32,000 nucleotides of DNA from Chlamydiota bacterium (GCA_016196885.1 JACPWU010000002.1:1-32000); one strand, 5' to 3'; shown: positions 130 to 31,260, counted from the first letter of the stretch. Notes: generated from the letters alone by a model not told the origin. Numbers and translations: made by a program.

Positions 130-188
130 GTGAGGGGTGAGTTTTGAAGGTTTTATTTTTACTCACCACTCATCCCTTACCCCTCACA
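130..188. repeat. Family A heptamer hairpin, copy A1
   Basis: Left array GTGAGGG GTGAGTT (130-143), loop TTGAAGGTTTTATTTTT, right array ACTCACC ACTCATC CCTTACC CCTCACA (161-188). Loop and arms resemble copy A2 at 29090-29161. Lies between two convergent stop codons (122 and 197). Confidence 0.75.
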
Positions 189-196
189 ACAGGTTT

Positions 197-1048
197 TTAC
201 TCACTCGTCAACACTTCCGCTTTTTCTATTCTCGCAATAAAAATGACAGAGATGACGAGCAAGAGCCCTCCCAAAATTGCAGATAAGGCAGGTGTTTCCT
301 TCCAAAAAATCATTCCCAGAATTAAAGAGAAAAGAACAATACTGGATGAGTAGGCGCTGGTTGCGGCGGTGCTTCCCCATTGATAAGCCTGGGTCATGAG
401 AATCTGGGCAATGGTGGCAAGGATACCGGTTCCTCCGAGATATAAAATTTCTTTTCCATGAGGCATTTTGAAGATGGGCCATGTCAGTGGCGTGGCAATC
501 AGAGTCGAAACCCAAGAAAAGTAAAACACAATGGTGAGAGGGGAATCTTTGTTTTTCAAGGCCCCAATGGAAAGATAGGCGCCCGCGGCAAAGACTCCGG
601 AGATCAGGCCCACCATCATTCCCCAAAAATTAACGTAGGTCTGGGGTTGAACAATGAGGATCACTCCCAAGAACCCGAAGACAATGAAGAAAAATACAGG
701 CGCATGAAATTTTTCTTTCAAAATGAAGGGGGCTAGCATTGCTACAAAAAGCGGAGAGGTATAATTAAGCATTACGGCCATGGCCAAGGGAATTTTGCTG
801 ACGGCCCAAAAATAAAGGCTGAGGGCTAGAAAGCCACTGACCCCTCTCACGATTAAAATGGAAGGTTTGTTGCCCAAGAAAGAAGTTCTCTGAATCAGAA
901 TGACAGGGATGATTGAGATAAACCCGATCACGCTTCTAAAAAATACAATTTCTGAAACAGGAATGGTTTGGCTTGCAAAGCGGACACAGACTCCCATCAG
1001 AGCGAAGAGAAAAGAAGAAGAGGTCATCAGAAGAGCATTTTTTTTCAT
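197..1048 (-). CDS. EamA/DMT-family membrane transporter
   Basis: Hydrophobic throughout with about 10 predicted TM segments in two similar halves. DMT-like N-terminus MKKNALLMTSSSFLFALMGVCVRFAS. ATG at 1048 preferred; the ORF track extends to 1096. Confidence 0.85.
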   Translation of the reverse strand: MKKNALLMTSSSFLFALMGVCVRFASQTIPVSEIVFFRSVIGFISIIPVILIQRTSFLGNKPSILIVRGVSGFLALSLYFWAVSKIPLAMAVMLNYTSPLFVAMLAPFILKEKFHAPVFFFIVFGFLGVILIVQPQTYVNFWGMMVGLISGVFAAGAYLSIGALKNKDSPLTIVFYFSWVSTLIATPLTWPIFKMPHGKEILYLGGTGILATIAQILMTQAYQWGSTAATSAYSSSIVLFSLILGMIFWKETPALSAILGGLLLVISVIFIARIEKAEVLTSE

Positions 1049-1154
1049 AGCTAACCTGGATTTCTCACCCACATTCGTCATTCCCGCAAGTTTCAACGAA
1101 ATAGCCTGTACGTGTTTTTAGCTTGTGATGAAAAATAAGGGCTGAATCATTCTC

Positions 1155-1811
1155 TCAACGATGGGTCTGGACTCCTCTTTTCTTGCAATATATTTCAATC
1201 TCACAAAGGCTACAAAAGGGTGATATCGGTCGACACAAATTCTGGCCATAGGAAACAAAAAGATCATTCAAAATTTTCCAGTGTTTTTGAGGAATCGCTT
1301 TCATGAGGGCAAACTCCGTTTGTTCCGGGGTTTTCGTTTCCACCCAGCCCAGACGATTTGAAATCCGGTGGACATGCGTATCTACGCAAATGCCGTCTTT
1401 ATCATACCCGAGGGTGAGAACCAGATTAGCGGTTTTTCGTCCAACCCCTTTTAAACTGAGCAATCCTTCTAATGTATTGGGAACTTGACCTTGAAATTGA
1501 CCCATGAGTGTTTTAGAAATTTCAAGAATGGTTTTGGCTTTTGTCTTGTAAAATCCAGCGGGATAAATTAGTTTTTCAATTTCATTAGAAGCAAGTTTGA
1601 GCATTTCTGAAGGAGTAGAGGCTTTCTGAAAAAGTCTTTGAGATGCAATATCGGTGACTTCGTCTTTGGTTCGAAGACTGATCAGGCATGAAATCAAAAT
1701 TTGATACGGGCTGCGGGAAGTTTCGGCCACGATCCCAACGGCTGGTGTTTTCCACCGGCGAGTGGTTTTCTTCAAAATTGCAATCATAGTCTCGATGTCT
1801 TTTATGTGCAT
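1155..1811 (-). CDS. nth: endonuclease III (DNA glycosylase/AP lyase)
   Basis: HhH-GPD motif LLSLKGVGRKTANLVL, VDTHVHRI segment, and C-terminal 4Fe-4S ligands CX6CX2CX5C (CRPISPFCSLCEIEIYC). Confidence 0.9.
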   Translation of the reverse strand: MHIKDIETMIAILKKTTRRWKTPAVGIVAETSRSPYQILISCLISLRTKDEVTDIASQRLFQKASTPSEMLKLASNEIEKLIYPAGFYKTKAKTILEISKTLMGQFQGQVPNTLEGLLSLKGVGRKTANLVLTLGYDKDGICVDTHVHRISNRLGWVETKTPEQTEFALMKAIPQKHWKILNDLFVSYGQNLCRPISPFCSLCEIEIYCKKRGVQTHR

Positions 1812-1817
1812 AGAAGG

Positions 1818-1826
1818 TGGTATAAT
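1818..1826 (+). promoter_or_regulatory. candidate extended -10 promoter element for queE
   Basis: TGGTATAAT (TGnTATAAT) lies 53 nt upstream of the queE ATG in the divergent nth-queE spacer. No good -35 seen. Confidence 0.35.
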
Positions 1827-1842
1827 ATACCTTAAGAATAAA

Positions 1843-1874
1843 GTTTAAAAGTTCAAACGTTCAAAGGTTTAAAG
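1843..1874 (+). repeat. four tandem 8-mers in the queE 5-prime leader
   Basis: GTTTAAAA GTTCAAAC GTTCAAAG GTTTAAAG, ending 4 nt before the queE ATG and overlapping the only SD-like AAGGA. Confidence 0.6.
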
Positions 1875-1878
1875 GATC

Positions 1879-2517
1879 ATGCTAAAGGTTAACGAAATTT
1901 ATAAAAGCATTCAGGGGGAATCCAGTTTTGTCGGGCTGCCTTGTGTTTTTGTGCGACTCACAGGTTGTCATTTAAGATGCACCTGGTGCGATACCGCCTA
2001 TGCCTTTCATGAAGGAGAGGACATGACGGTGGAGGAGGTTGTGAAAAAAGTGCGGGGTCTTGGCCCTCGACTTTTTGAACTCACGGGTGGAGAGCCCTTG
2101 CTTCAGGAAGACGCTTTTCCATTGGTTGAGCGCCTTTTGAAGTTACATGACACGGTTTTAGTGGAAACCAGTGGAGCCGTGGATGTTGCGTGTTTGGACA
2201 AACAGGCGGTGAAAATCATGGATATCAAATGTCCTGCGAGCGGGATGTCCGATAAAATGATTTGGGAGAACTTGAATTATTTAACGCCTCGTGATGAAAT
2301 TAAGTTTGTGATTCAGAATCGTTCTGATTTTGATTGGGCGTGTCGTGTGATTGAAGAACATGATTTGCTCAAAAAGTCCCCGATTTTATTTTCTCCTGTT
2401 TTTGGGCAATTGAATCCTCAAGAATTGGCCGAGTGGATTTTGAAGGAAAATTTGAATGTTCGCATGCAGCTCCAAATTCATAAATACATTTGGTCTGTGG
2501 AGGTAAGAGGCGTATGA
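1879..2517 (+). CDS. queE: 7-carboxy-7-deazaguanine synthase (radical SAM)
   Basis: N-terminus IYKSIQGESSFVGLPCVFVRLTGCHLRCTWCDT with CX3CX2C cluster motif, ELTGGEPLL SAM-binding motif, about 210 aa as in QueE. Confidence 0.9.
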   Translation: MLKVNEIYKSIQGESSFVGLPCVFVRLTGCHLRCTWCDTAYAFHEGEDMTVEEVVKKVRGLGPRLFELTGGEPLLQEDAFPLVERLLKLHDTVLVETSGAVDVACLDKQAVKIMDIKCPASGMSDKMIWENLNYLTPRDEIKFVIQNRSDFDWACRVIEEHDLLKKSPILFSPVFGQLNPQELAEWILKENLNVRMQLQIHKYIWSVEVRGV

Positions 2518-2705: not shown

Positions 2706-2820
2706 AAAGATTGTTCTTTGGGAGAGTTCTTGATAGAAAAGTTTTGTTCCTTATAACTCTCCTCTTGTTATGAAACATTCATGCCGACTGAGGTCGGCAC
2801 AAAGGGGGATGAAAATCACC

Positions 2821-2898: not shown

Positions 2899-2920
2899 CT
2901 AAAATGGCGGGTAGGTGGGG

Positions 2921-3074: not shown

Positions 3075-3140
3075 GGGGTAGGGGGAGTTATGAAAATTAA
3101 TTTTATAACCCCTCCTGCCTCCCCTTAAACTAAGGGGAGG
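3075..3140. repeat. G/C-tract hairpins resembling family E (E1)
   Basis: GGGGTAGGGGGAGTTAT (3075-3091) versus ATAACCCCTCCTGCCTCCCC (3105-3124), plus CCTCCCCTTA-AAC-TAAGGGGAGG (3118-3140), about 40 nt upstream of gpmA. Confidence 0.55.
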
Positions 3141-3180
3141 AAAAAATGTTTTTGAGATTTATATCCATTAGGAGAGCATC

Positions 3181-3934: not shown

Positions 3935-4732
3935 TTGAAATTTTTTCATTTCCTTCAGATTTTTTTCATCTCTCTTACCTTCAACTTTTTCCCCTATTTT
4001 GCGAGAGGGGAAAACACTTCTTTCCAGGAACTGCTTCATCAAGCGGACCAGGCCTATGAGGCCAAATCTTATGAGGAGGCCTTTGGGCTTTATGAAAAAG
4101 CTTCTCAGACGAATTCTCAAAACTATGAATTGATTTGGAAATGGGCTCGGGTTTGTGTACACCTTTCTGAGCAAACTCAGGACGAGAAATCTCAAGAGGG
4201 TTACGAGAAAAAAGCGTATGAGTTGGGTCAAAAGGCGATAGGGCTTAATCCAGACGGGACCGAGGGTCATCTTTATTTTTGTTTGGGCTTGGGGAAATGG
4301 GCCTTAGGAAAGGGACCCCGAGAGCAAATTCGTGTTTCCAAAGAAATCAAAGAACACATTGAGAAATCTATTGCGTTAGATCCCAGTCATCATTCGGCTT
4401 GGCATGTGCTCGGATGCTGGCATCAGAGATTGGCGACGCTCAACTGGTTTGAGAAAAGTTGTGCCAATCTTTTTCTGGGCGGGGTGCCCAAAGATGCCTC
4501 GTTGGAGAAGGCCGTGGAATGCTTTCAGAAAGCCATTGCCTTGGAACCGAACGCCATTTTTCATCATTTAGAATTGGCCAAAACTTATGAGGCCATGAAA
4601 AAGAAGGAGGATGCGATTCAAGAATATCAAAAGGTCTTAGCTCTTCCGATTTATGATTCTGAAGATAATCAGAGGAAAAAAGAAGCAGAGAAGAGAATGA
4701 CCCATTTCCAATTTCAAATGTCAAATGAATGA
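3935..4732 (+). CDS. secreted TPR-like protein resembling the RMD1/FAM82 (regulator of microtubule dynamics) fold family
   Basis: Hydrophobic N-terminal signal-like segment. The C-terminal half (WHVLGCWHQRLATLNWFEKSCANLFLGGVPKDASLEKAVECFQKAIALEPN) resembles the RMDN-type TPR region as I recall it. TTG start in the track. Confidence 0.7.
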   Translation: MKFFHFLQIFFISLTFNFFPYFARGENTSFQELLHQADQAYEAKSYEEAFGLYEKASQTNSQNYELIWKWARVCVHLSEQTQDEKSQEGYEKKAYELGQKAIGLNPDGTEGHLYFCLGLGKWALGKGPREQIRVSKEIKEHIEKSIALDPSHHSAWHVLGCWHQRLATLNWFEKSCANLFLGGVPKDASLEKAVECFQKAIALEPNAIFHHLELAKTYEAMKKKEDAIQEYQKVLALPIYDSEDNQRKKEAEKRMTHFQFQMSNE

Positions 4733-4735
4733 CCG

Positions 4736-4797
4736 ATGACAAATGTCCAATGGATCATTGGAAATTAATTTGTCATAGGTTATTGGACATTTGTCAT
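4736..4797. repeat. Family C heptamer hairpin, copy C1
   Basis: ATGACAAATGTCCAAT (4736-4751) pairs perfectly with ATTGGACATTTGTCAT (4782-4797). The inner ATTGGAAATTAATTTGTCAT is shared with C4. Sits between convergent stops and contains the prmA stop codon. Confidence 0.8.
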
Positions 4798-5661
4798 TTT
4801 CAATAAATATCCCTTCCAATCTCCCTCTTCCTTCTGATCTTGAATGACCCATTTTTTCTGTTTTTTGAGCCAGGGTTCAAAAAAAGAGATTTGACTTTTT
4901 TCAATTCCTGCAAGGATGAGGCAGCCTTTTGGAGAGTGAACGAGACGCGTGATATTCTTCCAGTTTTTTTGAATATCTAATGCCGTCAGATTGGCAAAGG
5001 CGGCGTCATATTTTTGAGGTTTCTTGAAGAAGGCGATCGCCTTTGTAGAAAATAGGATTTTTTTATGCACACGATTCCTCTGAGCATTTTTTTGGGCAAT
5101 TTCAATAGCCTCAGGATCAATATCTAATGCGAGCGCTTTTTGGACACCTAATTTAATGGCAGCAATGGCTAAAATCCCGGACCCGCATCCGATGTCGCAG
5201 ACTTTTTCCCAAGATAAAGCCCTTTTGGAAATCCATTCCAGGCACATGCGTGTGGTGGGATGATGTCCTGTGCCAAAGGCCATATCAGGATCGAGTCGAA
5301 TCACTTTTTCTTGATTTTTTCCTTTGTAAGAAATCCAACTGGGGCAGACGATCCATTCTTGAATTCTTAATAAACCCAGGCCTTTTTTCCATCGGGTGGT
5401 CCAATTCGAGGGAAGGGAAGAGAGTCTAAAATTCGAAAAATGAAAAAGGGAATGCTTAAGTTTTTTCTTAAGAAGGCCTCCTTCTTTTTTATTTTGAAGA
5501 TAAATTTTAACGATGGGTTTTTGGTGAGGTTTTTCTTCAATGGTTGCTTGAAGACTCATTTCTGAGGTCAACCATTCGAGAATGGGATCCGTTTCAGGAT
5601 CACAGGTAAAGCTTAGGACGAAGAGATTTTTAGAGTACATGTTTTTGAAAAACAGGGGCAT
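4780..5661 (-). CDS. prmA: ribosomal protein L11 methyltransferase
   Basis: DPDMAFGTGHHPTTRMCLEWI and SAM motif VCDIGCGSGILAIAA, about 290 aa. The last six codons (KMTNVQ*) are encoded by repeat C1. Confidence 0.9.
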   Translation of the reverse strand: MPLFFKNMYSKNLFVLSFTCDPETDPILEWLTSEMSLQATIEEKPHQKPIVKIYLQNKKEGGLLKKKLKHSLFHFSNFRLSSLPSNWTTRWKKGLGLLRIQEWIVCPSWISYKGKNQEKVIRLDPDMAFGTGHHPTTRMCLEWISKRALSWEKVCDIGCGSGILAIAAIKLGVQKALALDIDPEAIEIAQKNAQRNRVHKKILFSTKAIAFFKKPQKYDAAFANLTALDIQKNWKNITRLVHSPKGCLILAGIEKSQISFFEPWLKKQKKWVIQDQKEEGDWKGYLLKMTNVQ

Positions 5662-5735
5662 GGGTCAAGGGTCAGGGGTCAAGAAAAAATAAACTCCTTT
5701 AAATCTTGACCCTTGACCCTTGCCGCTTGACCCTT
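5662..5735. repeat. Family B heptamer hairpin, copy B1
   Basis: GGGTCAA GGGTCAG GGGTCAA (5662-5682), 22-nt A/T loop, TTGACCC TTGACCC TTGCCGC TTGACCC (5706-5733). Starts 1 nt from the prmA ATG. The right arm matches B2 at 28 of 30 positions. Confidence 0.85.
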
Positions 5736-6364: not shown

Positions 6365-7483
6365 ATGGAAGCTTCGTTGATCATTGCCGATTCTGAAAAA
6401 GATTCGAACATGTATTATGCCACGCATTTCTTGGCGCCGGACGCCTTTGTCTATGTTGGCCTCAGTGGAAAAAGTGTGATGATTATGAGCGATTTGGAAG
6501 TGGATCGGGCGAGGGCGCAAGGAAAAGTGGACGAAGTTCTCTCCAGTACTCGACTGTCCAATGATCTTCGTTCGAAAGGCATTCTCCATCCGAGTCTCAC
6601 GGATATTCTAGAGGCTTATCTAAAAAATCAGGATGTGAAAAAGATAGAAGTTCCAGGCAATTTCCCTTTGGAGTACGCGGATTCCTTGAGGTCTAGAGGT
6701 TTTGTTCTCTCCTGCCGGAAAGATCCTTTTTTTGAGGCTCGGCTGGTCAAACGTTCTGAAGAAGTTAAAGCCATTTGCGAAACTCAACAAGCGACGGAAG
6801 ACGCGGTCGGTGAAGCCATCGATGTGATCAAGAAAAGTGGGATTCGTGGAGAGTTACTTTATTTTAAAAATGAAATTTTAACTTCGGAAAAAATAAAAGA
6901 GATTTTGCATTTGAGCATGATGAAGAAAAATTGCATTGGCGAACACACCATTGTGGCGTGTGGTGTGGATGGGGTAGATCCGCACAATGAAGGATCAGGC
7001 CCTTTGAAGGCGCATCAGTCTATTATTTTGGATGTGTTCCCTCGGTCTTCTAAAACTCGTTATTTTGCAGACATGACACGTACGGTGGTTCGAGGTCGGG
7101 CTTCAGAGAAATTGAAAAAGATGTACGCGGCTGTTTTGGAAGGTCAAAATATAGGCCTTCGCAGGGTTCGAAGTGGCGTGGATGGCAAAATGATTCACCA
7201 GGCTATTTTGGATTATTTCCATTCTTTGGGATTTGAATCGGGGGAGAGGGCAGGACGCCTTCAGGGTTTTTTCCACGGAACGGGTCATGGAGTGGGTTTA
7301 GACATTCATGAGCCGCCTCGCATCAGTCAGGGTTCAAATATTTTGAAAACAGGAGAAGTGGTGACCGTAGAACCCGGGCTTTATTATTTGGACGCGGGGG
7401 GCATTCGATTAGAGGATATGGTGCTTGTGCAACCGAATGGCTGTGAAAACTTAACAAAATTTCCAAAAGTTTTTGAACTTTAA
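6365..7483 (+). CDS. M24-family Xaa-Pro aminopeptidase/dipeptidase
   Basis: Pita-bread fold signatures HGTGHGVGLDIHEPP, VTVEPGLY and IRLEDMV. N-terminal creatinase-like domain of matching length. Confidence 0.9.
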   Translation: MEASLIIADSEKDSNMYYATHFLAPDAFVYVGLSGKSVMIMSDLEVDRARAQGKVDEVLSSTRLSNDLRSKGILHPSLTDILEAYLKNQDVKKIEVPGNFPLEYADSLRSRGFVLSCRKDPFFEARLVKRSEEVKAICETQQATEDAVGEAIDVIKKSGIRGELLYFKNEILTSEKIKEILHLSMMKKNCIGEHTIVACGVDGVDPHNEGSGPLKAHQSIILDVFPRSSKTRYFADMTRTVVRGRASEKLKKMYAAVLEGQNIGLRRVRSGVDGKMIHQAILDYFHSLGFESGERAGRLQGFFHGTGHGVGLDIHEPPRISQGSNILKTGEVVTVEPGLYYLDAGGIRLEDMVLVQPNGCENLTKFPKVFEL

Positions 7484-7585
7484 TGACAAATTTCCAATAA
7501 TTGGAAATTAACTAACAGAGAGCATTCATTGGACATTTGATATTTGTCATTCATTTGTTATTGGATATTGGGCATTTGTCATTTT
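7483..7585. repeat. Family C heptamer array, copy C2
   Basis: Palindrome AATTTCCAAT-A-ATTGGAAATT (7489-7509), then ATTGGAC ATTTGAT ATTTGTC (ATTC) ATTTGTT ATTGGAT ATTGGGC ATTTGTC. Starts at the stop codon of the M24 peptidase gene. Confidence 0.75.
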
Positions 7586-9194: not shown

Positions 9195-9204
9195 GCGCCT
9201 TTTT

Positions 9205-9667
9205 CCCCTCCCCTTGTGGGAGGGGTTAGGGGAGGGGTGATTGAATAACGAGTTAATAGAGATCGCTAAAGCATTAAGGCGCCATCTTACTAATGCGGAG
9301 AAACACCTTTGGTATGTATTGCGTGTTTGTCATTTGGGTGTAAAATTTCGAAGGCAGGCTGTGATTGGGAGATACATTGTAGATTTTGCATGTTTTGAGA
9401 GGAAACTGATTATTGAAGTAGATGGTGGACAACACTCAGAAAGTCAAGATGACAATGTGCGTGATAAGTGGCTTAGGGGAGAAGGGTTTGAAATATTGAG
9501 GTTTTGGAATCATGAAGTGTTGGAAAACCGGAATGGGGTTTTAGAAAAAATTATTGAGAAGTTGACAACCCCCTCCCTAGCCCTCCCCATGGTTTTCGCC
9601 TCTCGGCTCCAACCACTTCCTCGTCCACCCGCAAGCGGGTACCCGGACTCAGTCGCAAGGGGGAGGG
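9205..9667 (+). mobile_element. DUF559-endonuclease element bounded by about 33-bp G/C-tract terminal inverted repeats (family E, ends E2 and E3)
   Basis: Left end CCCCTCCCCTTGTGGGAGGGGTTAGGGGAGGGG (9205-9237) versus the reverse complement of the right end (9569-9589 plus 9656-9667) matches at 26 of 33 positions, and the mismatches preserve each end's own hairpin. An ORF-less copy of both ends lies at 24404-24480. Confidence 0.6.
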
Positions 9668-9672
9668 AATAA
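9241..9672 (+). CDS. DUF559 domain endonuclease (Vsr/restriction-endonuclease-like fold)
   Basis: LRRHLTNAEKHLWYVLR...FRRQAVIGRYIVDFACFERKLIIEVDGGQH...RDKWLRGEGFEILRFWNHEV is the classical DUF559 pattern. TTG start 5 nt after GGAGGGG in the left repeat. The C-terminal 35 aa are encoded by the right repeat. Confidence 0.85.
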   Translation: MNNELIEIAKALRRHLTNAEKHLWYVLRVCHLGVKFRRQAVIGRYIVDFACFERKLIIEVDGGQHSESQDDNVRDKWLRGEGFEILRFWNHEVLENRNGVLEKIIEKLTTPSLALPMVFASRLQPLPRPPASGYPDSVARGRE

Positions 9673-11367: not shown

Positions 11368-11382
11368 AAGAGATACTATGAT

Positions 11383-11686
11383 AAAATGAAAAGTGAAAAA
11401 TGAAGAGTGAAAAATAAAAAATGATACTCGTAATCGGTATAACTCTACGCAAGGGTAATAGCTTAGCTACGGGAACCGAGGCAATTTTTGATGGGGACGC
11501 TCGCCCCGACCAGCGATCGGGACGAGCTCTGGCTGAGTCGTTCGCTCACCTCGACTATTCGTCGAGGTACCATGCTCGCGAACGACTTCAACGCCCCATC
11601 AAAAACCGCCTTGGTTCCCTTGAGGGAGAATGGGTGCTAAACTGTTACACGCAAGGGCCATTTTACATTTTTCACTCTTCATTTTT
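11383..11686. repeat. Family F heptamer inverted arrays flanking a 230-bp interior
   Basis: Left AAAATGA AAAGTGA AAAATGA AGAGTGA AAAATAA AAAATGA (11383-11424). Right CATTTTA CATTTTT CACTCTT CATTTTT (11659-11686). 19 nt (AAAATGAAGAGTGAAAAAT) are perfectly inverted between the arms. Confidence 0.75.
11455..11648. mobile_element. candidate 194-bp MITE-like or structured-RNA insert inside the family F hairpin
   Basis: Direct repeat ACGCAAGG(G) at 11447-11455 and 11649-11657. Ends GTAATAGCTTAGC and the reverse complement GTAACAGTTTAGC match at 11 of 13. 26-bp stem 11471-11496/11594-11619 enclosing two independent hairpins. Confidence 0.45.
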
Positions 11687-11703
11687 AATTATAAAATGCA
11701 AAT

Positions 11704-14870: not shown

Positions 14871-14924
14871 TTTTGTAGTCGCCCGATTCATCGGGCAGCC
14901 CCATAAATGGGGCGACTACAAAAT
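14871..14924. repeat. Family D complete palindrome (D4)
   Basis: TTTTGTAGTCGCC (14871-14883) pairs with GGCGACTACAAAA (14911-14923), enclosing CCCGATTCATCGGG and CCCCATAAATGGGG hairpins. Upstream of the response-regulator gene. Confidence 0.85.
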
Positions 14925-14943
14925 GTAGCCTCACTTTCATAGC

Positions 14944-14978
14944 AAAATGCAAAAATCAAAATGACAATGTAAAAATAG
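14944..14978. repeat. solitary family F-like heptamer array
   Basis: AAAATGC AAAAATC AAAATGA CAATGTA AAAATAG. No inverted partner seen nearby. Confidence 0.4.
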
Positions 14979-16712: not shown

Positions 16713-16724
16713 AGTGGGAATGCT

Positions 16725-16833
16725 CAATTCCCAATAACAAATGACAAATAAATTTCCAATTCTTCAATGTCCCATTAGATATTTGTCATTGGTTATTCAT
16801 TTGTAATTTGGATTTGGACATTGGAAATTTGAT
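16725..16833. repeat. Family C heptamer array, copy C3
   Basis: Inverted-orientation words (CAATTCC CAATAAC AAATGAC ...) followed by ATTAGAT ATTTGTC ATTGGTT (ATTC) ATTTGTA ATTTGGA TTTGGAC ATTGGAA ATTTGAT. Shares the ATTCATTTGT phase break with C2. Confidence 0.7.
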
Positions 16834-17873: not shown

Positions 17874-18758
17874 ATGATTTTCCTCACAGGTTCTACAGGT
17901 TTTTTAGGTCGGCATCTCGTGCCTCTCTTAAAAGAAAGAGGCCTTCAAACCCGCTGTTTAATTCGTGAAAATTCTAAAACGGATTGCCTGGGTGATTCCT
18001 GCGAAGACAAGGTGATCGGGGATATTTTAAACGAAGCCTCTTTGAAATATTGCATGAGGGGTGTGGACACTGTGATTCATCTGGCTGGCGTGCGCATGGA
18101 AACGGGCCCGGCAAGCTTTGAAGGTATTTTTTATTTGGGCACGCGTCACGTGGTGGATGTGGCCAAGGCCAGTGGCGTGAAGCGATTTATTTTCTTGAGC
18201 ACGTATGGGGCTCGACCCAAGGCCAAGAGCCGTTTCCATCATTTTAAATGGCTGGCGGAAGAATATCTCAAACACAGCGGCTTAAAATACACCATTCTTC
18301 GCCCCACCGTGATTTATGGTTCCTCGGACCATTTTGTCACTCGCTGGGCAAGAAAATTAAAGGTCTTGCCCATCGTTCCCATTTTAGGCAAGGGTGGAAA
18401 TTTGTTACAGCCCATTTATGTTGAAGATGTGGCTCGATGTGTGATCCAGTCCTTAGAAGATCCAGCCAAAAGTGAAAAAATTTATGAGTTGGGAGGGCCG
18501 GACCGCCTCGCCTTTAGAAAAATTGTTCGCTTGATCGGTGAGATTTCAGGACATCGGCGGAGGCTTTTTTATTGGCCTTTGTCCTGGGTCAAGGCCTTCG
18601 CCTATTTTATGGAACTTCTGTTTCCGCATCCCCCTTTTACCTCTGATGAAATGCTCCGTTGGATGGAAGACCGCGTTTGTGACCATCACGTGATTGAAAA
18701 AGAGTTTGGGTTAAAGTTGACGCCGTTTCAGGAAGGATTGAAAAAGTTCCTGAAATAA
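17874..18758 (+). CDS. NAD(P)-binding atypical SDR (NDUFA9/NmrA-like)
   Basis: N-terminal Rossmann MIFLTGSTGFLGRHLV, ILRPTVIYG segment, about 295 aa. Confidence 0.8.
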   Translation: MIFLTGSTGFLGRHLVPLLKERGLQTRCLIRENSKTDCLGDSCEDKVIGDILNEASLKYCMRGVDTVIHLAGVRMETGPASFEGIFYLGTRHVVDVAKASGVKRFIFLSTYGARPKAKSRFHHFKWLAEEYLKHSGLKYTILRPTVIYGSSDHFVTRWARKLKVLPIVPILGKGGNLLQPIYVEDVARCVIQSLEDPAKSEKIYELGGPDRLAFRKIVRLIGEISGHRRRLFYWPLSWVKAFAYFMELLFPHPPFTSDEMLRWMEDRVCDHHVIEKEFGLKLTPFQEGLKKFLK

Positions 18759-19699: not shown

Positions 19700-21271
19700 C
19701 TAAGCCGTATATTCCCCAAAAACTTCTTTCAGGGTTCTCACGATTTCTCCAAGGGTTGCTCGAGCCTTCACAGCTTCTAGAAAAAGGGGAATCAAATTTT
19801 CCTTGCTTGAGGCTGCTTTTTGGATGCGTTTCAGATTTTGCTCGACAGCAGCATTGTGACGCGATTTTTTCAATTTGCGCAGTTTCTCTTTTTGAATTTT
19901 CTCTACTTTAGGATCGACAGTTAAAATTTTCATGCGAGGGATCTTCGTTTCTTGATACTGGTTGACCCCCACAATGATTCTCCTTTTTTCTTCAATGTCT
20001 TTTTGATATTGAAAAGCGCTTTCTGCAATTTCTTTTTGAAACCATCCCTGACGAATGCCTTCTTCAACGCCTCCAATAGATTGAATGCGGTCAAAATAGT
20101 CGAGAACGCCTCTTTCTATTTTATCGGTCAGCCATTCTACATAATAAGAACCGCCCAGAGGGTCTGTGACAGACGTAACGTTGCTTTCATGGGCAATGAT
20201 TTGCTGCGTTCGAAGTGCCAAGGTTACCGCTTTTTGAGTGGGAAGGGCCAGGGCCTCGTCCATGGAATTGGTGTGCAGAGATTGTGTGCCGCCCAGAACG
20301 CCTGCGAGGGCCTGCAAGGCAGTCCTTGTTAAATTGTTTTCAGGCTGTACAGAAGTCAGGCTGCAGCCTGCGGTTTGAACATGCAGTCTCAAGAGCAAGG
20401 TCTTTTCCTCTTGGGCGCCGTATTCTGTTTTAAGGATTTTGGCCCAGAGGCGCCGCGCGGCCCGGTATTTTGCAATCTCTTCAAAAAAATCATTGTGTGC
20501 GTTCAGAAAAAAACTCAGACGATTTGCAAAGTCATCCACTTTAAGACCCCGCTCTAGCCCTAGATTTAAATAGCGTTTGGCGTCTGATAGTGTAAAGGCA
20601 AGTTCTTGAATCGCAGTCGCTCCCGCTTCTCGAATGTGATAACCACTGATCGAAATGGGATACCAGCGGGGGACTTCTTTGGCGGCAAATTCGATCATGT
20701 CTCCAATCAAGCGTAGCCCTGGCTCGACAGGAAAAATGTAAGTATTCTGGGCGATGTATTCTTTCAAAATATCATTTTGAATGGTTCCCCGAATTCTTTT
20801 GAAAGAAGCACCTTGCTTCTCAGCGACTGCCAGAAACATGGCCCAGATAATGGAGGCTGGGGCATTGACCGTCATGGAAGTAGAAATTTGTTCCAGACGA
20901 ATGCCTTTAAAAAGCTCTAGCATATCTTCAATGGAATCAATGGCCACACCATCTTTTCCCACTTCTCCATGAGATTGCGGATGATCAGAATCCAGGCCCA
21001 GCAAGGTAGGCAAATCAAAGGCGATGGAAAGACCGGTCTGACCCCTTTTCAAGAGATATTTGAGCCTTCGATTGGAGTCTTTGGCCGAACCAAAGCCTGC
21101 AAATTGACGAAAGGTCCACATTTGGGAGCGGTATCCCAGACTTGAAAGTCCTCGGGTAAAAGGATATTCACCGGGCTTTTCCTTTTTGGAGTCAAAATCC
21201 TTTTCATCGTAAAAAGACTTTAAAGGAATGTTGGAATATGTGTGATAATCAGGAGCTTTTTTTTCTTCCAT
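19700..21271 (-). CDS. methylmalonyl-CoA mutase family, catalytic (large) subunit
   Basis: EYPFTRGLSSLGYRSQMWTFRQFAGFGSAKDSNRRLKYLLKRGQTGLSIAFDLPT is the mutase N-terminal signature. About 520 aa with no B12 domain (split type). Confidence 0.92.
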   Translation of the reverse strand: MEEKKAPDYHTYSNIPLKSFYDEKDFDSKKEKPGEYPFTRGLSSLGYRSQMWTFRQFAGFGSAKDSNRRLKYLLKRGQTGLSIAFDLPTLLGLDSDHPQSHGEVGKDGVAIDSIEDMLELFKGIRLEQISTSMTVNAPASIIWAMFLAVAEKQGASFKRIRGTIQNDILKEYIAQNTYIFPVEPGLRLIGDMIEFAAKEVPRWYPISISGYHIREAGATAIQELAFTLSDAKRYLNLGLERGLKVDDFANRLSFFLNAHNDFFEEIAKYRAARRLWAKILKTEYGAQEEKTLLLRLHVQTAGCSLTSVQPENNLTRTALQALAGVLGGTQSLHTNSMDEALALPTQKAVTLALRTQQIIAHESNVTSVTDPLGGSYYVEWLTDKIERGVLDYFDRIQSIGGVEEGIRQGWFQKEIAESAFQYQKDIEEKRRIIVGVNQYQETKIPRMKILTVDPKVEKIQKEKLRKLKKSRHNAAVEQNLKRIQKAASSKENLIPLFLEAVKARATLGEIVRTLKEVFGEYTA

Positions 21272-22181
21272 GAAACGCCTCCGCTAGAATTTTTTTTGCC
21301 CCTTCGTAAGGATTCTTTAAAAATTGTTTTGGGGCATGTTCAAGTTTCCGGTGGACGCGTTGCCAAGTCATGGACAAAGTCCAAAGGAGACATTCGAGTT
21401 CTTGATGAGATTTCCTTCTTTGATCGATTAATCCATGTGTTCTTAAAAAGTGGTGATGTTTCTCAATGGCTTCAAACAGCTCGTCCATTCCCTGACCATT
21501 CTGTGCAGAAGTGAGCATAATAGGGGGTTTCCAGCCTGTGTGTCCTCGGTCTTTCAGTTCATGCATGAGTGCATATTCCAATGGCTTGGCTCCTGGACGG
21601 TCCGCTTTATTAATGACAAAAATATCAGCCCATTCAATGAGACCCCGCTTCATCATCTGAATTTCATCTCCTCCTTCAGGTGAAAGGACGAGAACTGTTG
21701 TATCGGCCAAATGCTGAAGAGACCAGTCCGATTGACCCGCTCCTTGCGTCTCAATCAGGACGCAACCAAAGCCAAAAGCCCCCAAGGCTCGGGCCATGGT
21801 TTTAGCGGTAATATAGCCAGAAAAGGGAGTTCCTCTGGGTGCAAAACTTCTAAAAAAAAGGCGAGGGTGCTGGGCCTTTTCTTTTAAACGAATCCGATCT
21901 CCTAAAAATGCGCCCCCTGAAATAGAACTGCGAGGATCCATGGCAATGATTCCTACATATTGTCCTCGGGCCAAAAAATCTGTGAGCTGGGCTACCAAAG
22001 AGCTTTTACCTACGCCTGTTGAGCCAGTCAGGGCAATGGTGTAAATTTGGGAATCGCTCTCATAAATTTTCTTCAAGAGGTCATCGTCTAGAGGGCCTCT
22101 CTCTAAAAGGGTTAGAATGCGGGCCACGGCTTGTTCTTCTCCGCGAAGCGCTTCTTTGAAAAAACTTTGCCAGCCTTTCAT
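21249..22181 (-). CDS. meaB: methylmalonyl-CoA mutase-associated G3E GTPase
   Basis: P-loop GSTGVGKSS, ETQGAGQS switch region, INKADR specificity motif. Its 3-prime end overlaps the mutase gene by 23 nt. ATG at 22181 preferred over the track's upstream GTG at 22229. Confidence 0.9.
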   Translation of the reverse strand: MKGWQSFFKEALRGEEQAVARILTLLERGPLDDDLLKKIYESDSQIYTIALTGSTGVGKSSLVAQLTDFLARGQYVGIIAMDPRSSISGGAFLGDRIRLKEKAQHPRLFFRSFAPRGTPFSGYITAKTMARALGAFGFGCVLIETQGAGQSDWSLQHLADTTVLVLSPEGGDEIQMMKRGLIEWADIFVINKADRPGAKPLEYALMHELKDRGHTGWKPPIMLTSAQNGQGMDELFEAIEKHHHFLRTHGLIDQRRKSHQELECLLWTLSMTWQRVHRKLEHAPKQFLKNPYEGAKKILAEAFHGRKKSS

Positions 22182-22234
22182 GAATGTTGTCCGTTCCCTT
22201 GGGGCCACTCTAGTGGATGAAAAAGACACAACGT

Positions 22235-22333
22235 GTCATCCCGAGAACCCAGCCCTTTGTTAACAAAGGGCTGGGGACGAGGGATCTTGTTTTTGAAGTC
22301 AAGGACAGGATTTCTCGCTTCGCTCGAAATGAC
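22235..22333. repeat. composite palindromic element G
   Basis: GTCATCCCGAG (22235-22245) versus CTCGAAATGAC (22323-22333) are inverted. Perfect 28-bp palindrome CCCAGCCCTTTGTTAACAAAGGGCTGGG (22248-22275). Lies inside the mutase operon between the B12 subunit and meaB. Confidence 0.65.
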
Positions 22334-22373
22334 ATTGTGATGGAGTTGTTCAAGTCTGCTTTTATCCTCATAG

Positions 22374-22787
22374 TTATTCCGATTGAAGGAGTTTTTCTTT
22401 AAGGAAATGAATAATGTCTTCTGTCGAGGTGTCCGGGCCCCAAAGTTTATTCACCCCTTTTTTCTCCAATTTTTCAATGTCTTCAGGTGGGATAATGCCG
22501 CCACCAATGAGGAGCATGTCTGTTAACTTTTTTCTCTTACGCAATTTTAAGAGTTCTGAAAAAAGAGTCATGTGAGCCCCTGAAAGAATGCTAATCCCGA
22601 TCGCATCCACGCCTTCTTGCAGAGCCGCATCCATAATGGCCTCTGGGGTTTGCTTAATGCCTGAATAAATCACGTCCATCCCTGCATCTCTGAGGGCACG
22701 GGCAATCACTTTAATCCCGCGATCGTGGCCGTCCAGACCCACCTTGGCGAGAAGAATCTTGATTGAACTCAAACCTTTTTGTGCCAT
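22374..22787 (-). CDS. methylmalonyl-CoA mutase B12-binding (small) subunit
   Basis: KILLAKVGLDGHDRGIKVIARALRDAGMDVIYSG carries the DxHxxG cobalamin-binding motif. About 137 aa. Confidence 0.9.
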   Translation of the reverse strand: MAQKGLSSIKILLAKVGLDGHDRGIKVIARALRDAGMDVIYSGIKQTPEAIMDAALQEGVDAIGISILSGAHMTLFSELLKLRKRKKLTDMLLIGGGIIPPEDIEKLEKKGVNKLWGPDTSTEDIIHFLKEKLLQSE

Positions 22788-24371: not shown

Positions 24372-24403
24372 TCTCTAGTAGTTTGTCCGAAAACTCTGTT
24401 TTT

Positions 24404-24480
24404 CCCCTCCCTTGATGGGAGGGGTGAGGGGAGGGTGATCTTACATTCCCCCTCCCTGACCCTCCCCACAAGGGGGAGGG
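24404..24480. mobile_element. ORF-less (MITE-like or empty-site) copy of the DUF559 element ends (E4)
   Basis: Left half CCCCTCCCTTGATGGGAGGGGTGAGGGGAGGGTGA aligns with 9205-9240. Right half CCCCCTCCCTGACCCTCCCCACAAGGGGGAGGG aligns with 9569-9589 plus 9656-9667. Only 8 nt (TCTTACAT) separate the halves. Confidence 0.6.
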
Positions 24481-24535
24481 AAATGAGAGATAGAAGACTT
24501 TTCGGGTAGCCTGGAAGGATGACAGGTTGATCTCT

Positions 24536-28063: not shown

Positions 28064-28069
28064 AAAGGT

Positions 28070-28097
28070 AGCGTACAGCACATAGCGTGGAGCGTAC
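28070..28097. repeat. Family H heptamer array (half copy H1)
   Basis: AGCGTAC AGCACAT AGCGTGG AGCGTAC followed by AAAAACAGAAG, similar to the left arm and loop start of H2 at 31196-31220. No clear inverted partner. Confidence 0.5.
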
Positions 28098-28125
28098 AGG
28101 AAAAACAGAAGAGATTACAAAATGT

Positions 28126-28154: not shown

Positions 28155-28160
28155 GAGCCC

Positions 28161-28366
28161 AGTTTTAATAAAGGATGTCATCATAAATGAAAGCAGTTCG
28201 GTTTTCCATTCAAGACATGACGAAAAAGCCTCGCGTGGGCGTACGCTCTGCCGTATGCCTTCATGCGTGTGGGCTTTTGCCGTCATGGCTTTTGAAGGGA
28301 GAATAAGACGCTGCTTGTAAAATAGATTCAAACTTTAAAGCCCATGATTGCAAAAGCGATCATGGG
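28161..28366 (+). ncRNA. candidate sRNA or cis-regulatory leader of about 205 nt, class unknown
   Basis: Bounded by the candidate promoter and a strong intrinsic terminator. Long-range stem CATGACGAAAAAGCC (28208-28222) with GGCTTTTGCCGTCATG (28262-28277). The only internal ORF is 39 codons with a poorly spaced SD. Confidence 0.35.
28331..28366 (+). terminator. rho-independent terminator
   Basis: GCCCATGAT-TGCAAAAGCG-ATCATGGGC followed by eight T. It ends 32 nt before the ATG of the next gene. Confidence 0.8.
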
Positions 28367-28398
28367 CTTTTTTTTCAATTTTCTAAAGGAGGTGGACC

Positions 28399-28614: not shown

Positions 28615-28700
28615 CATTGAATGTCCAATTCCCAATTTCCAATTGGACATTGAAGAATTGGAAATTAATTTGTCATTGGTTATGGATCATTGGGAATTTT
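28615..28700. repeat. Family C heptamer hairpin, copy C4
   Basis: AATGTCCAATT (28620-28630) pairs with AATTGGACATT (28641-28651). It is followed by ATTGGAAATTAATTTGTCATTGGTTATGGATCATTGGGAAT, near-identical to the C1 interior. Sits between convergent stops and contains the stop of the 121-aa gene. Confidence 0.75.
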
Positions 28701-29052: not shown

Positions 29053-29089
29053 TCAGTTTTTTCTCTTTAATTTCTTAATGAAAATAACT

Positions 29090-29161
29090 GTGAGTTGTGA
29101 GGGGTGAGTTGTGAGTTTTGAAGGTATTTTTTTACTCACGACTCACCCCTCACTACCCACG
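29090..29161. repeat. Family A heptamer hairpin, copy A2
   Basis: GTGAGTT GTGAGGG GTGAGTT GTGAGTT, loop TTGAAGGTATTTTTTT, ACTCACG ACTCACC CCTCACT ACCCACG. 20-bp stem with one T-G pair. Confidence 0.85.
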
Positions 29162-29176
29162 ACGGGTTTATACGAA

Positions 29177-29485
29177 CTACGGTAACTCCACCCAGACTTC
29201 TTCTCCCTCAACTTTGACATTGTATTTCGCTTGAGAGATCGAAGGGCTGGTGGTGCATTCGCCTGTTGTGACATTGTATTGCCACCCATGCCAGGGGCAA
29301 ATGACTTCTTTTCCCTCTAAGCTTCCTTCGCCCAAGGGGCCGCCTCGGTGCTTGCACGTATTTTCAATGGCATAAAAACTCCCCTCAACGTTAAATAGAG
29401 CAATGGATTTTCCCTCTACCTCAAGAGCTGTTCCCGTTCCCTCTGGGATGTCTTTTTTTTGAGCAACTTTAATAAAGTTTCCCAT
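29177..29485 (-). CDS. Rieske [2Fe-2S] ferredoxin (NirD-like small Rieske protein)
   Basis: CKHRGGPL and CPWHGWQY cluster-binding boxes. The ATG at 29485 (MGNFIKV) lies 7 nt after AAGGAG. The track's longer N-terminus runs into repeat B2. Confidence 0.85.
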   Translation of the reverse strand: MGNFIKVAQKKDIPEGTGTALEVEGKSIALFNVEGSFYAIENTCKHRGGPLGEGSLEGKEVICPWHGWQYNVTTGECTTSPSISQAKYNVKVEGEEVWVELP

Positions 29486-29509
29486 GTTCATTCTCCTTTT
29501 ATCAAAAAT

Positions 29510-29605
29510 GGGGTCAAGGGTCATGGGTCAAGGGGCAAGTAAAAGAAAAAGTGCTTTTATCCCTGTGTTGGTTTTTTGACCCTTGACTCTTGCAGCTTGA
29601 CCCTT
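29510..29605. repeat. Family B heptamer hairpin, copy B2
   Basis: GGGTCAA GGGTCAT GGGTCAA GGGGCAA (29511-29538), 36-nt loop, TTGACCC TTGACTC TTGCAGC TTGACCC (29576-29603). Degenerate similar words continue to about 29650. Confidence 0.85.
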
Positions 29606-29827
29606 ACATTTCGACCCTGAAAGAATAACCCTTCAGCTTGGTCAAAGTCAATGTTCTCAAAATGAGGCCGATTTGATACAAAGTGGAGCGGAAAAGGGGG
29701 GCGCTCTGGAGCTTCAAAAAAGAGATTTTTTTCACAACTCCTTTTCTATTAAGAAGTTAATGATTTTTTATGAATTTGGCATGAAGCTTGCTCCTCTTAA
29801 GGCTAAAGAAGGGAGGAGGGGATTTTT

Positions 29828-30025
29828 ATGAAAAAGATTTTCTTGGTTATGGTGCTCATGGTCGGTTGTCTTTTGGGGAGTCAGGTTCCGGCATCGGCTC
29901 ATTCTTATTATTATCGCTCCCATGGATATCGGCCCTATTACACCTATCGTCCGGCTTATTACTATGGTTATTACCGTCCTTATTGTTACGACGACGGGGC
30001 GGTTGTTTATTACAGTGGGTGTTAA
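29828..30025 (+). CDS. secreted Tyr/Arg/Pro-rich mini-protein (65-aa precursor)
   Basis: SD GGGAGGAGGGG 7 nt before the ATG. Signal peptide MKKIFLVMVLMVGCLLGSQVPASA. The predicted mature 41 aa contain 16 Tyr with repeated YRP, and two Cys in the last 13 residues (one is the C-terminal residue). It has its own terminator. Confidence 0.65.
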   Translation: MKKIFLVMVLMVGCLLGSQVPASAHSYYYRSHGYRPYYTYRPAYYYGYYRPYCYDDGAVVYYSGC

Positions 30026-30052
30026 GCAAGAAAAGCTTTCAGCACTCAAGAG

Positions 30053-30090
30053 GCGCCTGGGATTTCGTTCAGAATCCCGGGCGCTTTTTT
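30053..30090 (+). terminator. rho-independent terminator
   Basis: GCGCCTGGGATT-TCGTTCAG-AATCCCGGGCGC (one T-G pair) followed by TTTTTT. Confidence 0.8.
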
Positions 30091-30163
30091 ATTCTTCCAT
30101 TGACCGGGGGATATTCATTTGATTAAATGACCCTGATCTATATCATAAATCATAAAGAGGCGT

Positions 30164-31189
30164 ATGTCTGTACCGATTCGTCAAGTTTTGAAGGTAGGTT
30201 CTTATGTTTTTCGCCAGCGCTTGAAAAAAAATAAGCGCTATCCTCTGGTCTTGATGTTGGAACCTCTTTTTCGTTGTAATCTCGCCTGCCCGGGCTGCGG
30301 TAAAATTCAATACCCGACAGACATTTTAAGAAGGCATCTTTCCCCTGAGCAATGTTTTAAGGCAGTGGAAGAATGTGGGGCGCCCGTGATTTCTGTTGCT
30401 GGAGGAGAGCCTTTACTGCATCCGCAAATTGAGGAAATTGTGAGTGGCCTGATTGGGCGCAAGAAATTTATTTATCTTTGTACCAATGCCATTTTGCTTG
30501 AAAGGAATTTACATAAATTTAAGCCGTCGGTTTATTTGACCTTGAGTATTCACATGGATGGCCTAGAAGAATTGCATGACAAGGCTGTGGATCGCCGAGG
30601 GGTTTTTAGAGAGGCCGTAGGTGCGATTCAAAAGGCGAAGGAGTTGGGGTTTCGCGTGACTACCAACACCACCGTTTTTGATGGGGTGAATCCTCAAGAG
30701 ATGATAGATCTTTTTGATGGTCTGACAGATTTAGGAGTAGACGGGATGATGGTGTCTCCCGGGTATGCGTATGAGAAAGCACCCGATCAAGAGCATTTTC
30801 TGAAGCGAAACAAGACGAAGACCCTTTTCTCCAAAATTTTAGGTGAGGATGGAAAGGGCAAAAAGAGGTGGAGATTTAATCATTCTCCTTTGTATCTGGA
30901 ATTTTTGACAGGGCAGCATGATTATGATTGTACCCCTTGGGGCAATCCCAATTACAGCGTCTTAGGGTGGCAGCGTCCTTGTTATCTGATGGCGGAAGGG
31001 GGGCATGTTGAAAGTTTTAAAGAGTTAATAGAGGGGACCGATTGGTCCGGCTATGGATGTAAAAGTGGCAACCCCAAATGCCAAGATTGTATGGTTCACT
31101 CCGGTTATGAGCCCACTGCGGTCAATGATTCCATGACCAGTGTTTCTAAAGCGCTGAAGTCTTTGGCGGGTGCTTTGGGGATTCGGTAA
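30164..31189 (+). CDS. hpnH: adenosylhopane synthase (hopanoid-associated radical SAM protein)
   Basis: [20 protein letters not shown] radical SAM motif, [49 protein letters not shown] and GWQRPCYLM all match HpnH as I recall it. About 340 aa. Confidence 0.9.
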
Positions 31190-31195
31190 AAGATG

Positions 31196-31260
31196 GCGTA
31201 CAGCGTGCAGAAAACAAACCTTCCTTTTTTACTGTCCGCTCCGCGCTGAACGCTATACGC
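31196..31260. repeat. Family H heptamer hairpin (H2)
   Basis: GCGTACA GCGTGCA G (31196-31210) pairs at 13 of 15 positions with CTGAACG CTATACGC (31246-31260). 35-nt loop. Begins 7 nt after the hpnH stop. Confidence 0.55.

Follow-up and report, generated by a model that had tools for sequence, protein, structure and literature searches.

What kind of element keeps one unit length while its sequence changes completely? The question is raised by a stretch of 32,000 nucleotides from a Chlamydiota bacterium (GCA_016196885.1, JACPWU010000002.1:1-32000; hereafter the window), in which a reading of the sequence alone had described five families of intergenic hairpins (A, B, C, F and H), each composed of tandem 7-bp words, an A/T-rich loop and the inverted array of heptamers. 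The arrays proved to be strongly periodic at 7 nt, and their copies are alike over whole elements. We give about an even chance to the reading that these are families of dispersed palindromic repeats, which resemble repetitive extragenic palindromic (REP) sequences in lifestyle and short tandemly repeated repetitive (STRR) sequences, or heptanucleotide simple sequence repeats (SSRs), in structure.

Heptamer arrays in the window

Tandem Repeats Finder returned 13 period-7 rows for the window, all at sites named in the sequence-only reading; the arrays start at 126, 5654, 5705, 11378, 14942, 16733, 28625, 29089, 29134, 29511, 29576 and 30142. Heptamer-periodic sequence was present at every location that reading had given. 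The self-identity of intergenic DNA (4.7 kb) was 0.311 at lag 7, 0.296 at lag 14 and 0.277 at lag 21, the background being 0.261 ± 0.010, which puts lag 7 at z = 4.9, and the 7-nt autocorrelation that had been proposed as a check is therefore present. Coding DNA had a lag-7 identity of 0.250, equal to its own background, and carries no such signal. A uniform scan of the window for periods 4-12 gave 6 arrays at period 7 and 0-1 at each other period, making period 7 the only one enriched. There is one direct array of period 8, four octamers (AAAGTTCA) at 1840-1873 in the divergent nth/queE gap, ending 5 nt before the queE start.

The elements are as follows; no strand is assigned unless one is given, and fold z-scores were computed against dinucleotide shuffles.

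A1 hairpin, 126..190: left arm GGGGTGA x2.3, T-rich loop of 19 nt; fold z -4.6.
A1 right arm, within 126..190: ACTCACC ACTCATC CCTTACC CCTCACA.
A2 hairpin, 29089..29163: 20-bp stem, 4 GTGAGNN units in the left arm (two more than A1); fold z -7.4.
B1 hairpin, 5654..5735: GGGTCAN x4, A-rich loop of 21 nt, NTGACCC x4; fold z -6.5.
B2 hairpin, 29509..29605: GGGTCAN x4, loop of 37 nt, inverted arrays; fold z -3.3.
C1 element, 4704..4800: words ATTKGNN and TTTGTCA, pairing over 34 nt at 76%; fold z -3.5.
C2 element, 7483..7585: from the stop codon of the M24 peptidase gene to 14 nt before the thyX start; fold z -2.5.
C3 element, 16719..16833: pairing over 42 nt at 71%; fold z -1.3, not better than shuffles.
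C4 element, 28615..28700: in a convergent gene pair; fold z -0.8, not better than shuffles.
F left arm, 11378..11424: AAAATGA/AAAGTGA x6.6, 11 nt upstream of the glpD-like start on the minus strand.
F right arm, 11659..11690: pairs with the left arm at 93% over 28 nt; the GCS2 start lies 14-18 nt downstream.
F-loop insert, 11456..11648: 193 nt, GC-richer and highly structured, predicted fold -93.9 kcal/mol.
F-like half array, 14942..14978, plus strand: GCAAAAT GCAAAAA TCAAAAT GACAATG TAAAAAT, with no right arm.
H1, 28070..28097, plus strand: direct array of GCGTNCA type, no hairpin (fold z -0.6); a weak assignment to the family.
H2 hairpin, 31196..31260: GCGTACA GCGTGCA, loop, inverted units; fold z -3.0.

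Families A and B, elements C1, C2 and H2, and family F are paired inverted arrays, the pairing extending over 27 nt at 89% in A2, 36 nt at 81% in B1 and 28 nt at 79% in B2; H1 and the half array are unpaired. The single architecture that had been claimed thus holds in several families, but not for H1, and the folds of C3 and C4 are like those of shuffled sequence. Nor does the claimed loop of 10-36 nt apply to F, whose arms are 235 nt apart because of the 193-nt insert; without it the loop would be ~33 nt. This insert is bordered on both sides by an exact 9-nt direct repeat, ACGCAAGGG, and by imperfect 12-13-nt terminal inverted repeats, has no Rfam match, and has no second copy in the loci fetched. 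[quoted passage not shown]

The words had been described as completely different between families. There are indeed several word families, and a sixth (NTCGANN) lies just past the window, in a hairpin at 20016-20080 of locus L001. A TGAC/GTCA core, often TTGACA-like, is nevertheless shared by the words of B, C and the F-like array and by families from other genomes (loci L125, L126, L203 and L251, below), and is much commoner in family words than the ~5% expected. The TTGACA-like hexamers point outward from the loop in B and inward in C and F, and a unified outward-promoter model was rejected on this ground.

Copies and relatives

In alignments, identity between A1 and A2 was 84% along the arms, the loop and the flanks on either side, the only indel being one of 14 nt, or two units; B1 and B2 were 81% identical and share in their right arms a derived variant unit, GCKGCAA. 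The closeness of copies noted earlier by eye was confirmed in both instances: the B right arms agree at 28 of 30 positions and the A loops are nearly identical. C1 and C4 have a 28-nt stretch in common that reaches beyond the words. The half array at 14942-14978 shares the 16-mer AAATGACAATGTAAAA with three hairpins of L125, a locus from a related genome (~24 of 26 nt alike), and the L125 copies c1 and c3 are ~90% identical over 115 nt including the loop. A metagenome scan with the 17-mer GGAAATTAATTTGTCAT as the query for C matched at least 120 stretches; the only true C element among the matches listed was in an unrelated contig, L203, and is 88% identical, the others having arisen by chance in AT-rich DNA. 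Short-read contigs break off within A1 and immediately ahead of B2, a behaviour to be expected of sequence present in several copies.

Because the homology of copies extends beyond the word to the entire element, and copies recur in other genomes, we conclude that the elements are probably dispersed repeats whose arms change in 7-nt steps, rather than independent local microsatellites; the families also outlive species. The opposite account has each array expanding in place and folding back locally, with the families a mere coincidence of words. In its favour, growth of heptamer SSRs is a general tendency in some genomes (Mrazek et al. 2007, as cited in PMC4692102), and arrays of different words abut in other phyla. 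The loops and flanks shared by A1 and A2 and by L125 c1 and c3, the derived unit common to the B right arms, and the presence of the same elements at non-orthologous sites in different species largely refute it, and we regard it as very improbable.

Loci of relatives were retrieved through HpnH homologues, that of L125 being 82% identical; the YqeY-like protein matched no record, and Nth led to short contigs only. An intergenic lag-7 excess was found in L125 (z = 3.6), in L126 (z = 3.7) and in the 9 kb that follow the window (z = 4.1), but not in L128 (z = -2.2), and period-7 arrays were few or absent in L250 and L251. The hairpin design recurs in two related Chlamydiae MAGs, being written in L125 with the words AAATCAA/AAATGAC, TAATTGA(C) and AGTCAAC/ACTGTCG, and in L126 with CGTNATG/CATNACG and GGGNATT/AATNCCC. 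Comparison of presence and absence, which had been suggested as a check, showed that hairpins come and go at syntenic gaps. The gap between the aminotransferase and isocitrate dehydrogenase genes is 76 nt with a hairpin here, versus 24 nt (L126) and 35 nt (L251) with none; a GGGNATT hairpin on the 3' side of the LysM gene in L126 is missing from this genome; and nothing in L126 or L251 corresponds to H2, which here follows hpnH. Since L125 and L126 share the design with other words while the syntenic gaps differ, the heptamer-hairpin rule appears to be lineage-wide, single insertions not being conserved.

The same relatives carry intergenic tandem duplications of ~100 nt with tRNA-like 3' fragments, at 19073-19420 in L125 and at 18265-18560 and 19150-19500 in L126, the repeated fragments containing ...GGTTCGAGCCCCGTCACTCCCG... 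and ...GGTTCAATTCCGTCTCCCGGCA....

The window was assigned to a groundwater metagenome-assembled genome (MAG) labelled by NCBI 'MAG: Chlamydiae bacterium' (GCA_016178005.1), whose contig JACOUD010000070.1 starts at about window position 2665; the initial 2.6 kb must accordingly derive from some longer assembly. Two independent short-read assemblies are 100% identical to the window over the parts they cover. An assembly artefact was rejected, the A2, B2, C4 and H2 regions being 100% identical across independent assemblies.

The genes of the window are ordinary chromosomal ones: EamA, nth, queE, gpmA, a TPR protein, prmA, an M24 peptidase, thyX, a DUF559 protein, glpD-like, GCS2, a response regulator with GGDEF/EAL, rlmI-like, yqeY, ornithine cyclodeaminase, an epimerase, methylmalonyl-CoA mutase with MeaB, trmB, a GH35/42 galactosidase, a Rieske protein and hpnH. 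A scan of the window for tRNA and tmRNA genes found none. The hopanoid-synthesis gene hpnH (30164-31189) is thus encoded in a genome labelled Chlamydiae; its closest homologues from outside the clade are cyanobacterial and from Bdellovibrionota (65-68%). Together with the mutase/MeaB and galactosidase genes (19700-22787) it makes a set unusual for Chlamydiae as known from cultured members.

Gene ends and transcripts

The elements fill ~13 of the ~29 intergenic gaps of the window, nearly half, and not most gene boundaries as had been thought; the closeness to gene ends stands, 9 of 13 elements starting 0-34 nt past a stop codon. A1 lies in a convergent gene pair, 5 and 7 nt from the respective stop codons. 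A2 begins 14 nt past the stop of the Rieske gene and ends 37 nt ahead of the next start on the minus strand, C3 lies 7 nt past the stop of the yqeY-like gene and 23 nt ahead of the next start, and H2 follows the hpnH stop by 7 nt, with T-rich sequence next. B1 is 14 nt upstream of the prmA start (minus strand), and B2 is in a divergent region, 24 nt upstream of the Rieske gene start. Four gene ends fall inside C arms: the last nine codons and the stop of the TPR gene are the C1 left array, the last codons and stop of prmA are the C1 right arm, the last four codons and stop of a gene for a 121-aa protein are the C4 right arm, and the TAA of the M24 peptidase gene is followed by the in-frame TGA of the first C2 word. 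Elements build up at sites that tolerate them, namely intergenic DNA and the last few codons of genes.

The array had also been credited with a stop codon in all three frames, a consequence of the 7-nt period with any word that contains a stop triplet. This is so for the arms of A, B and F, each on one strand, and partly for C, but not for C4-left or H. Whole A1, A2, B1 and B2 have stops in all six frames, which only 9-28% of shuffles reach, and by a rough count 8-9 of 13 families have words with TGA, against ~3 expected. The property is best read as a survivorship filter on words that come to lie next to genes, not as a purpose. Because four genes end inside C arms, stop-rich words would survive insertion at gene ends, and there is no need to suppose that a translation barrier was selected for.

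The wider proposal is that the hairpins were selected at gene boundaries as bidirectional terminators or insulators and as frame-independent barriers, stopping both transcripts and read-through translation. The proximity to stop codons and the six-frame stops are points in its favour, as is the filling of all three tight convergent gene pairs (A1, C1 and C4). A, B and H2 keep a 5' A-run and T-rich 3' flanks, the latter 2-6 nt off the stem in A, B (minus strand) and H2. The analogous arrays of Xanthomonas lie on average 28 nt from the upstream open reading frame (ORF) and 160 nt from the downstream one (PMC4692102).

The anatomy of an intrinsic terminator, a GC-rich stem with a 3-8-nt loop and a U-tract directly after the stem, is however not that of the heptamer hairpins, whose loops are 17-37 nt long and whose U-tract is not immediate. 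A promoter/terminator consensus scan flagged none of them as a terminator, its total counts being no higher than in shuffles. It did flag two canonical terminators in the window, at 28337-28375 and 30048-30095; like another at 17520-17556 of L001, they have 15-18-bp GC-containing stems, 4-6-nt loops and T-runs, and the organism therefore uses ordinary terminators. Position is a further difficulty. Only 14-23 nt separate C2, C3, B1 and the L001 20016-20080 hairpin from the next start codon; this leaves no room for a promoter, so that transcription must read through, and a strong terminator would silence the downstream gene. B1, B2, F and H1 lie 5' of genes or between divergent ones. The sense strand has no advantage in folding, the antisense fold being equal or better in 9 of 11 tandem cases, a small sample. 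Finally, hairpins are not conserved at the orthologous gaps of relatives, and H and C4-left lack three-frame stops. On balance we think a selected terminator, insulator and translation-barrier role unlikely. In view of the forced read-through, the canonical terminators elsewhere and the absence of a sense-strand preference, the most likely role of a transcribed element would be that of a REP-like intercistronic or 3' stem-loop rather than that of an efficient terminator.

The sole suggestive result of the same scan was two -35/-10-like pairs, one each at the right ends of C2 (7576-7603) and C3 (16821-16850), where TTGTCA and TTGGAA respectively stand 16-18 nt before a TATGAT located at, or immediately ahead of, the start codon annotated for the following gene. 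They may represent promoters carried by the elements, or else wrongly called starts.

Arm polarity across phyla and known kinds of repeat

GGGTCAN arrays were sought with GGGTCANGGGTCANGGGTCA in 185,579 species, one genome each, and at least 120 stretches matched. The matches listed do not extend to this genome's own B copies; they include Deltaproteobacteria, Chloroflexota, Cyanobacteria, Bacteroidota, Planctomycetota, Gemmatimonadota, Acidobacteriota, Verrucomicrobiota, Rickettsiales, Omnitrophota, Nitrospirae, Actinomycetota and others. For the 101 of them with enough flank, an inverted partner (at least 12 of 14 positions, within 120 nt) was found downstream in 20, so that about a fifth are hairpins, and upstream in none; distant control windows gave none. 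The G-rich array was the 5' arm, on either strand, by 20:0, although this and the following polarity and period counts are biased by the selection of loci for a GGGTCAN array. The loci listed, 0.82 Mb from diverse phyla, held 340 period-7 arrays (14 kb) versus 34 of period 8 and 23 of period 9, and 44 of the period-7 arrays had an inverted partner. For words other than GGGTCAN the 5' arm was G-skewed or purine-rich in ~21 cases versus 7. Families A, B and F of the window have the same polarity, with the G- or purine-rich arm 5'. Arrays of different heptamer words often abut one another in these loci, for example in L006, L018, L024 and L114.

A period and polarity of this kind might be the footprint of a protein that reads 7-nt units in DNA or in single strands, the elements being its binding sites; a nucleoid-associated protein, a protein of the cold-shock-domain type or a recombinase that moves the elements would be candidates. 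Period 7 is exclusive over unrelated words and phyla, the polarity of the arms is strict, the TGAC/GTCA core recurs in B, C, the F-like array and several families of relatives, and family sequences are conserved between species. Published proposals point the same way: sites of the integration host factor (IHF)/HU type for the paired sites of Geobacter (PMC2700814), one cold-shock protein per heptamer, and a heptamer-binding partner in Nostoc (PMC4679880; bioRxiv 10.1101/2022.06.06.494920). Yet GTGAGNN, GGGTCAN, ATTGGAN, AAAATGA, GCGTNCA and NTCGANN are too different for one sequence-specific protein, no candidate gene was found adjoining the elements, the TTGACA-like hexamers have no consistent orientation, and the idea is without experimental support in any organism. 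We hold it to be rather doubtful.

Formation of G-quadruplexes or i-motifs, as proposed for GGGAATC in Xanthomonas and GGGGAYT in Nostoc, would suit the B left arms, each of which has exactly four G3-4 tracts with 3-4-nt spacers, and the GGGNATT family of L126; Xanthomonas arrays, too, most often have four units (PMC4692102). Four G3 tracts were found in the left arms of B1 and B2 only, being lacking in A (partly), C, F and H, and G-tracts are absent from C, F, H, the NTCGANN family of L001 and most L125 families. A quadruplex would have to compete with the duplex stem formed by the complementary arm, and the shared architecture is not accounted for, which leaves this the most improbable of the explanations considered.

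On the dispersed-repeat reading, each family would move as a whole element made of arms, loop and short flanks, in keeping with the copies aligned above. Units would be gained and lost by slipped-strand mispairing in 7-nt steps, while the complementarity of the arms might be roughly kept through a hairpin or cruciform state. Words with TGA or TAA would persist in that they give a stop in every frame, so that insertion at a gene end costs few residues. Where transcribed, the elements would fold into long stem-loops, 3'-terminal or intercistronic, with REP-like partial termination or 3'-end protection, and would not be dedicated, efficient terminators.

Several observations weigh against this reading. 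Slippage alone accounts neither for the exclusive period of 7 nor for the strict polarity, and it leaves the recurrence of the TGAC/GTCA core unexplained. Three assemblies from two samples showed no length polymorphism of A2, B2, C4 or H2; slippage must therefore be slow or constrained. No flanking direct repeat, as a target-site duplication, was seen in the alignments of A1/A2 or B1/B2, no transposase or REP-associated tyrosine transposase (RAYT; PF01797-type) was among the genes called in ~41-50 kb of the genome, and the sequence at hand offered no candidate mechanism of spread. The flanks of A, B and H2, with an A-run on the 5' side and T-rich sequence on the 3' side as in a terminator module, hint at selection.

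Strict polarity constrains every model, whether of slippage, fold-back, protein footprint or terminator ancestry, and we met no statement of the G-rich-5' order (20 of 20 among the matches listed) as a general rule in the papers on heptamer arrays consulted here. More speculatively, and at rather long odds in our judgement, a cross-phylum process indifferent to sequence may build polarised hairpins from 7-nt units with the G- or purine-rich array 5'; such a process might consist of a reaction of a polymerase or of repair, or rest on a protein able to read or deposit units of 7 nt.

Several known classes could be set aside. A CRISPR layout had already been excluded from the sequence, correctly: the units are 7 nt, contiguous and in inverted pairs, whereas CRISPR arrays are 23-50-nt direct repeats with unique spacers of similar length. 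Classical MITEs were rejected because the inverted arms are without a target-site duplication at A1/A2 or B1/B2. Integron attC sites are imperfect palindromes between RYYYAAC/GTTRRRY core sites, among promoterless cassettes; no such core sites occur at the element ends, and the neighbours are housekeeping genes (prmA, thyX, gpmA, hpnH, mcm), so that attC was rejected also. An Rfam search of the window, as had been suggested, gave no hits at gathering thresholds, and E values up to 1 added only generic miRNA-hairpin noise.

REP sequences and bacterial interspersed mosaic elements (BIMEs) are, like the elements here, dispersed imperfect intergenic palindromes at 3' ends and between cistrons, and as transcribed stem-loops they modulate mRNA stability. 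REPs, however, are 20-40 nt long, have a GTAG or CGTC head and are moved by RAYTs, whereas the heptamer hairpins are 65-115 nt long, headless and periodic in their arms, which begin GTGAG, GGGTCA or ATGACAA. Classical REP/BIME identity was rejected for them, a GTAG head occurring only in a separate repeat family. Those GTAG-headed palindromes (TTGTAGTCGCCCCATTTATGGGGCGACTACAA, variant GCCCGATAAATCGGGC) lie at about 2778-2960, as three copies in one 180-nt cluster, and at 14871-14923, as a tandem pair; the NCBI contig and Logan contigs end at the first cluster. They look like classical REP/BIME elements.

A further palindrome, G-rich/C-rich and of the type CCCCTCCC-N5-GGGAGGGG-TGAGGGGAGGG, occurs at 9195-9240, 9560-9672, 24396-24487 and 3075-3145. 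Two copies bracket and run into the DUF559 endonuclease-like gene (9241-9672), encoding its C-terminus, and the palindrome may be mobile together with DUF559. Part of its motif (GGGGTGAGGGG) resembles the family A word.

The sequence-only reading had recognised in the elements no described REP/BIME/MITE class. At the level of kind that view has to be given up, and the match to a described repeat family that it had named as refuting it is at hand, since paired inverted heptamer arrays are published for Xanthomonas (Rehm et al. 2015, PMC4692102) and Geobacter (Aklujkar et al. 2009, PMC2700814). Xanthomonas genomes have ~185 GGGAATC arrays each, ~90% of them intergenic, whose length varies between species, and in 70-75 cases per genome two arrays converge on opposite strands with stem-loop potential; the function of heptamer repeats is stated there as unknown (PMC4692102). 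As in the window, the heptamers are tandem, from 2 to more than 4 units, with variable word positions, intergenic and nearer to the end of the upstream ORF, and the inverted pairs are convergent with the G-rich arm first. In Xanthomonas, however, there is one word family, analysed as a G-quadruplex former, while here at least 5-6 families follow one architecture, most of them AT-rich and unable to form quadruplexes, and copies share loops and flanks.

Geobacter metallireducens has several classes of paired opposite-strand sites made from tandem repeats, among them class 3, with five tandem MTYCTGA, and a GGACCGG x4 family (PMC2700814). Several unrelated families per genome, variable spacing of the paired sites, intergenic position and, as a further likeness, absence from a sister species recall the elements here. 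The differences are that class 2 units are 8-9 nt, that the authors read the sites as IHF/HU sites, that the phylum is another, and that no fold or periodicity analysis of the paired sites has been published.

Cyanobacterial heptanucleotides (STRR; Mazel et al. 1990, as cited in PMC4692102), TTTTGAA/TTCAAAA arrays in Nostoc, whose regulatory effects are unresolved (bioRxiv 10.1101/2022.06.06.494920), and TAACTGA arrays in Beggiatoaceae, for which stops in all frames were remarked (MacGregor 2015, PMC4679880), share with the window several heptamer words per genome, an intergenic position and a patchy phylogenetic distribution, and often abut start codons. They are mostly direct arrays, with 1 of 170 inverted in Beggiatoaceae and few paired cases in Nostoc, whereas most arrays here are hairpin halves. 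Over-representation of heptamers has been put down to polymerase slippage as a hypothesis (Mrazek et al. 2007, as cited in PMC4692102).

The window arrays have the features of heptanucleotide SSR/STRR sequences, with tandem 7-nt units in at least 2 copies, a non-coding bias and a period-7 excess, and those of paired inverted heptamer arrays of the Xanthomonas/Geobacter type, being on opposite strands, convergent, close and with stem-loop potential. Repeats of this kind have thus been published before, from Xanthomonas, Geobacter and cyanobacteria, though without a name or an explanation; what is new here is the phylum and the unusual wealth of word families.

Short-read assemblies break at heptamer elements, which also encode the last codons and stops of several genes, and so they matter for gene calling in MAGs. 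If a dedicated cross-phylum process does exist, the word families of this genome and those of Xanthomonas, Geobacter, cyanobacteria, Planctomycetes, Gemmatimonadota, Rickettsiales and others would be products of one mechanism, and not of generic slippage acting on ordinary palindromes. Among long SSRs, heptamer arrays are the one class found in excess in many bacteria. The present genome offers a compact and clean example, with nearly half of the gaps of the window filled and at least five word families on one architecture. Two features make it worth pursuing: the polarity that extends across phyla, and the way in which relatives keep the rule while exchanging the words.

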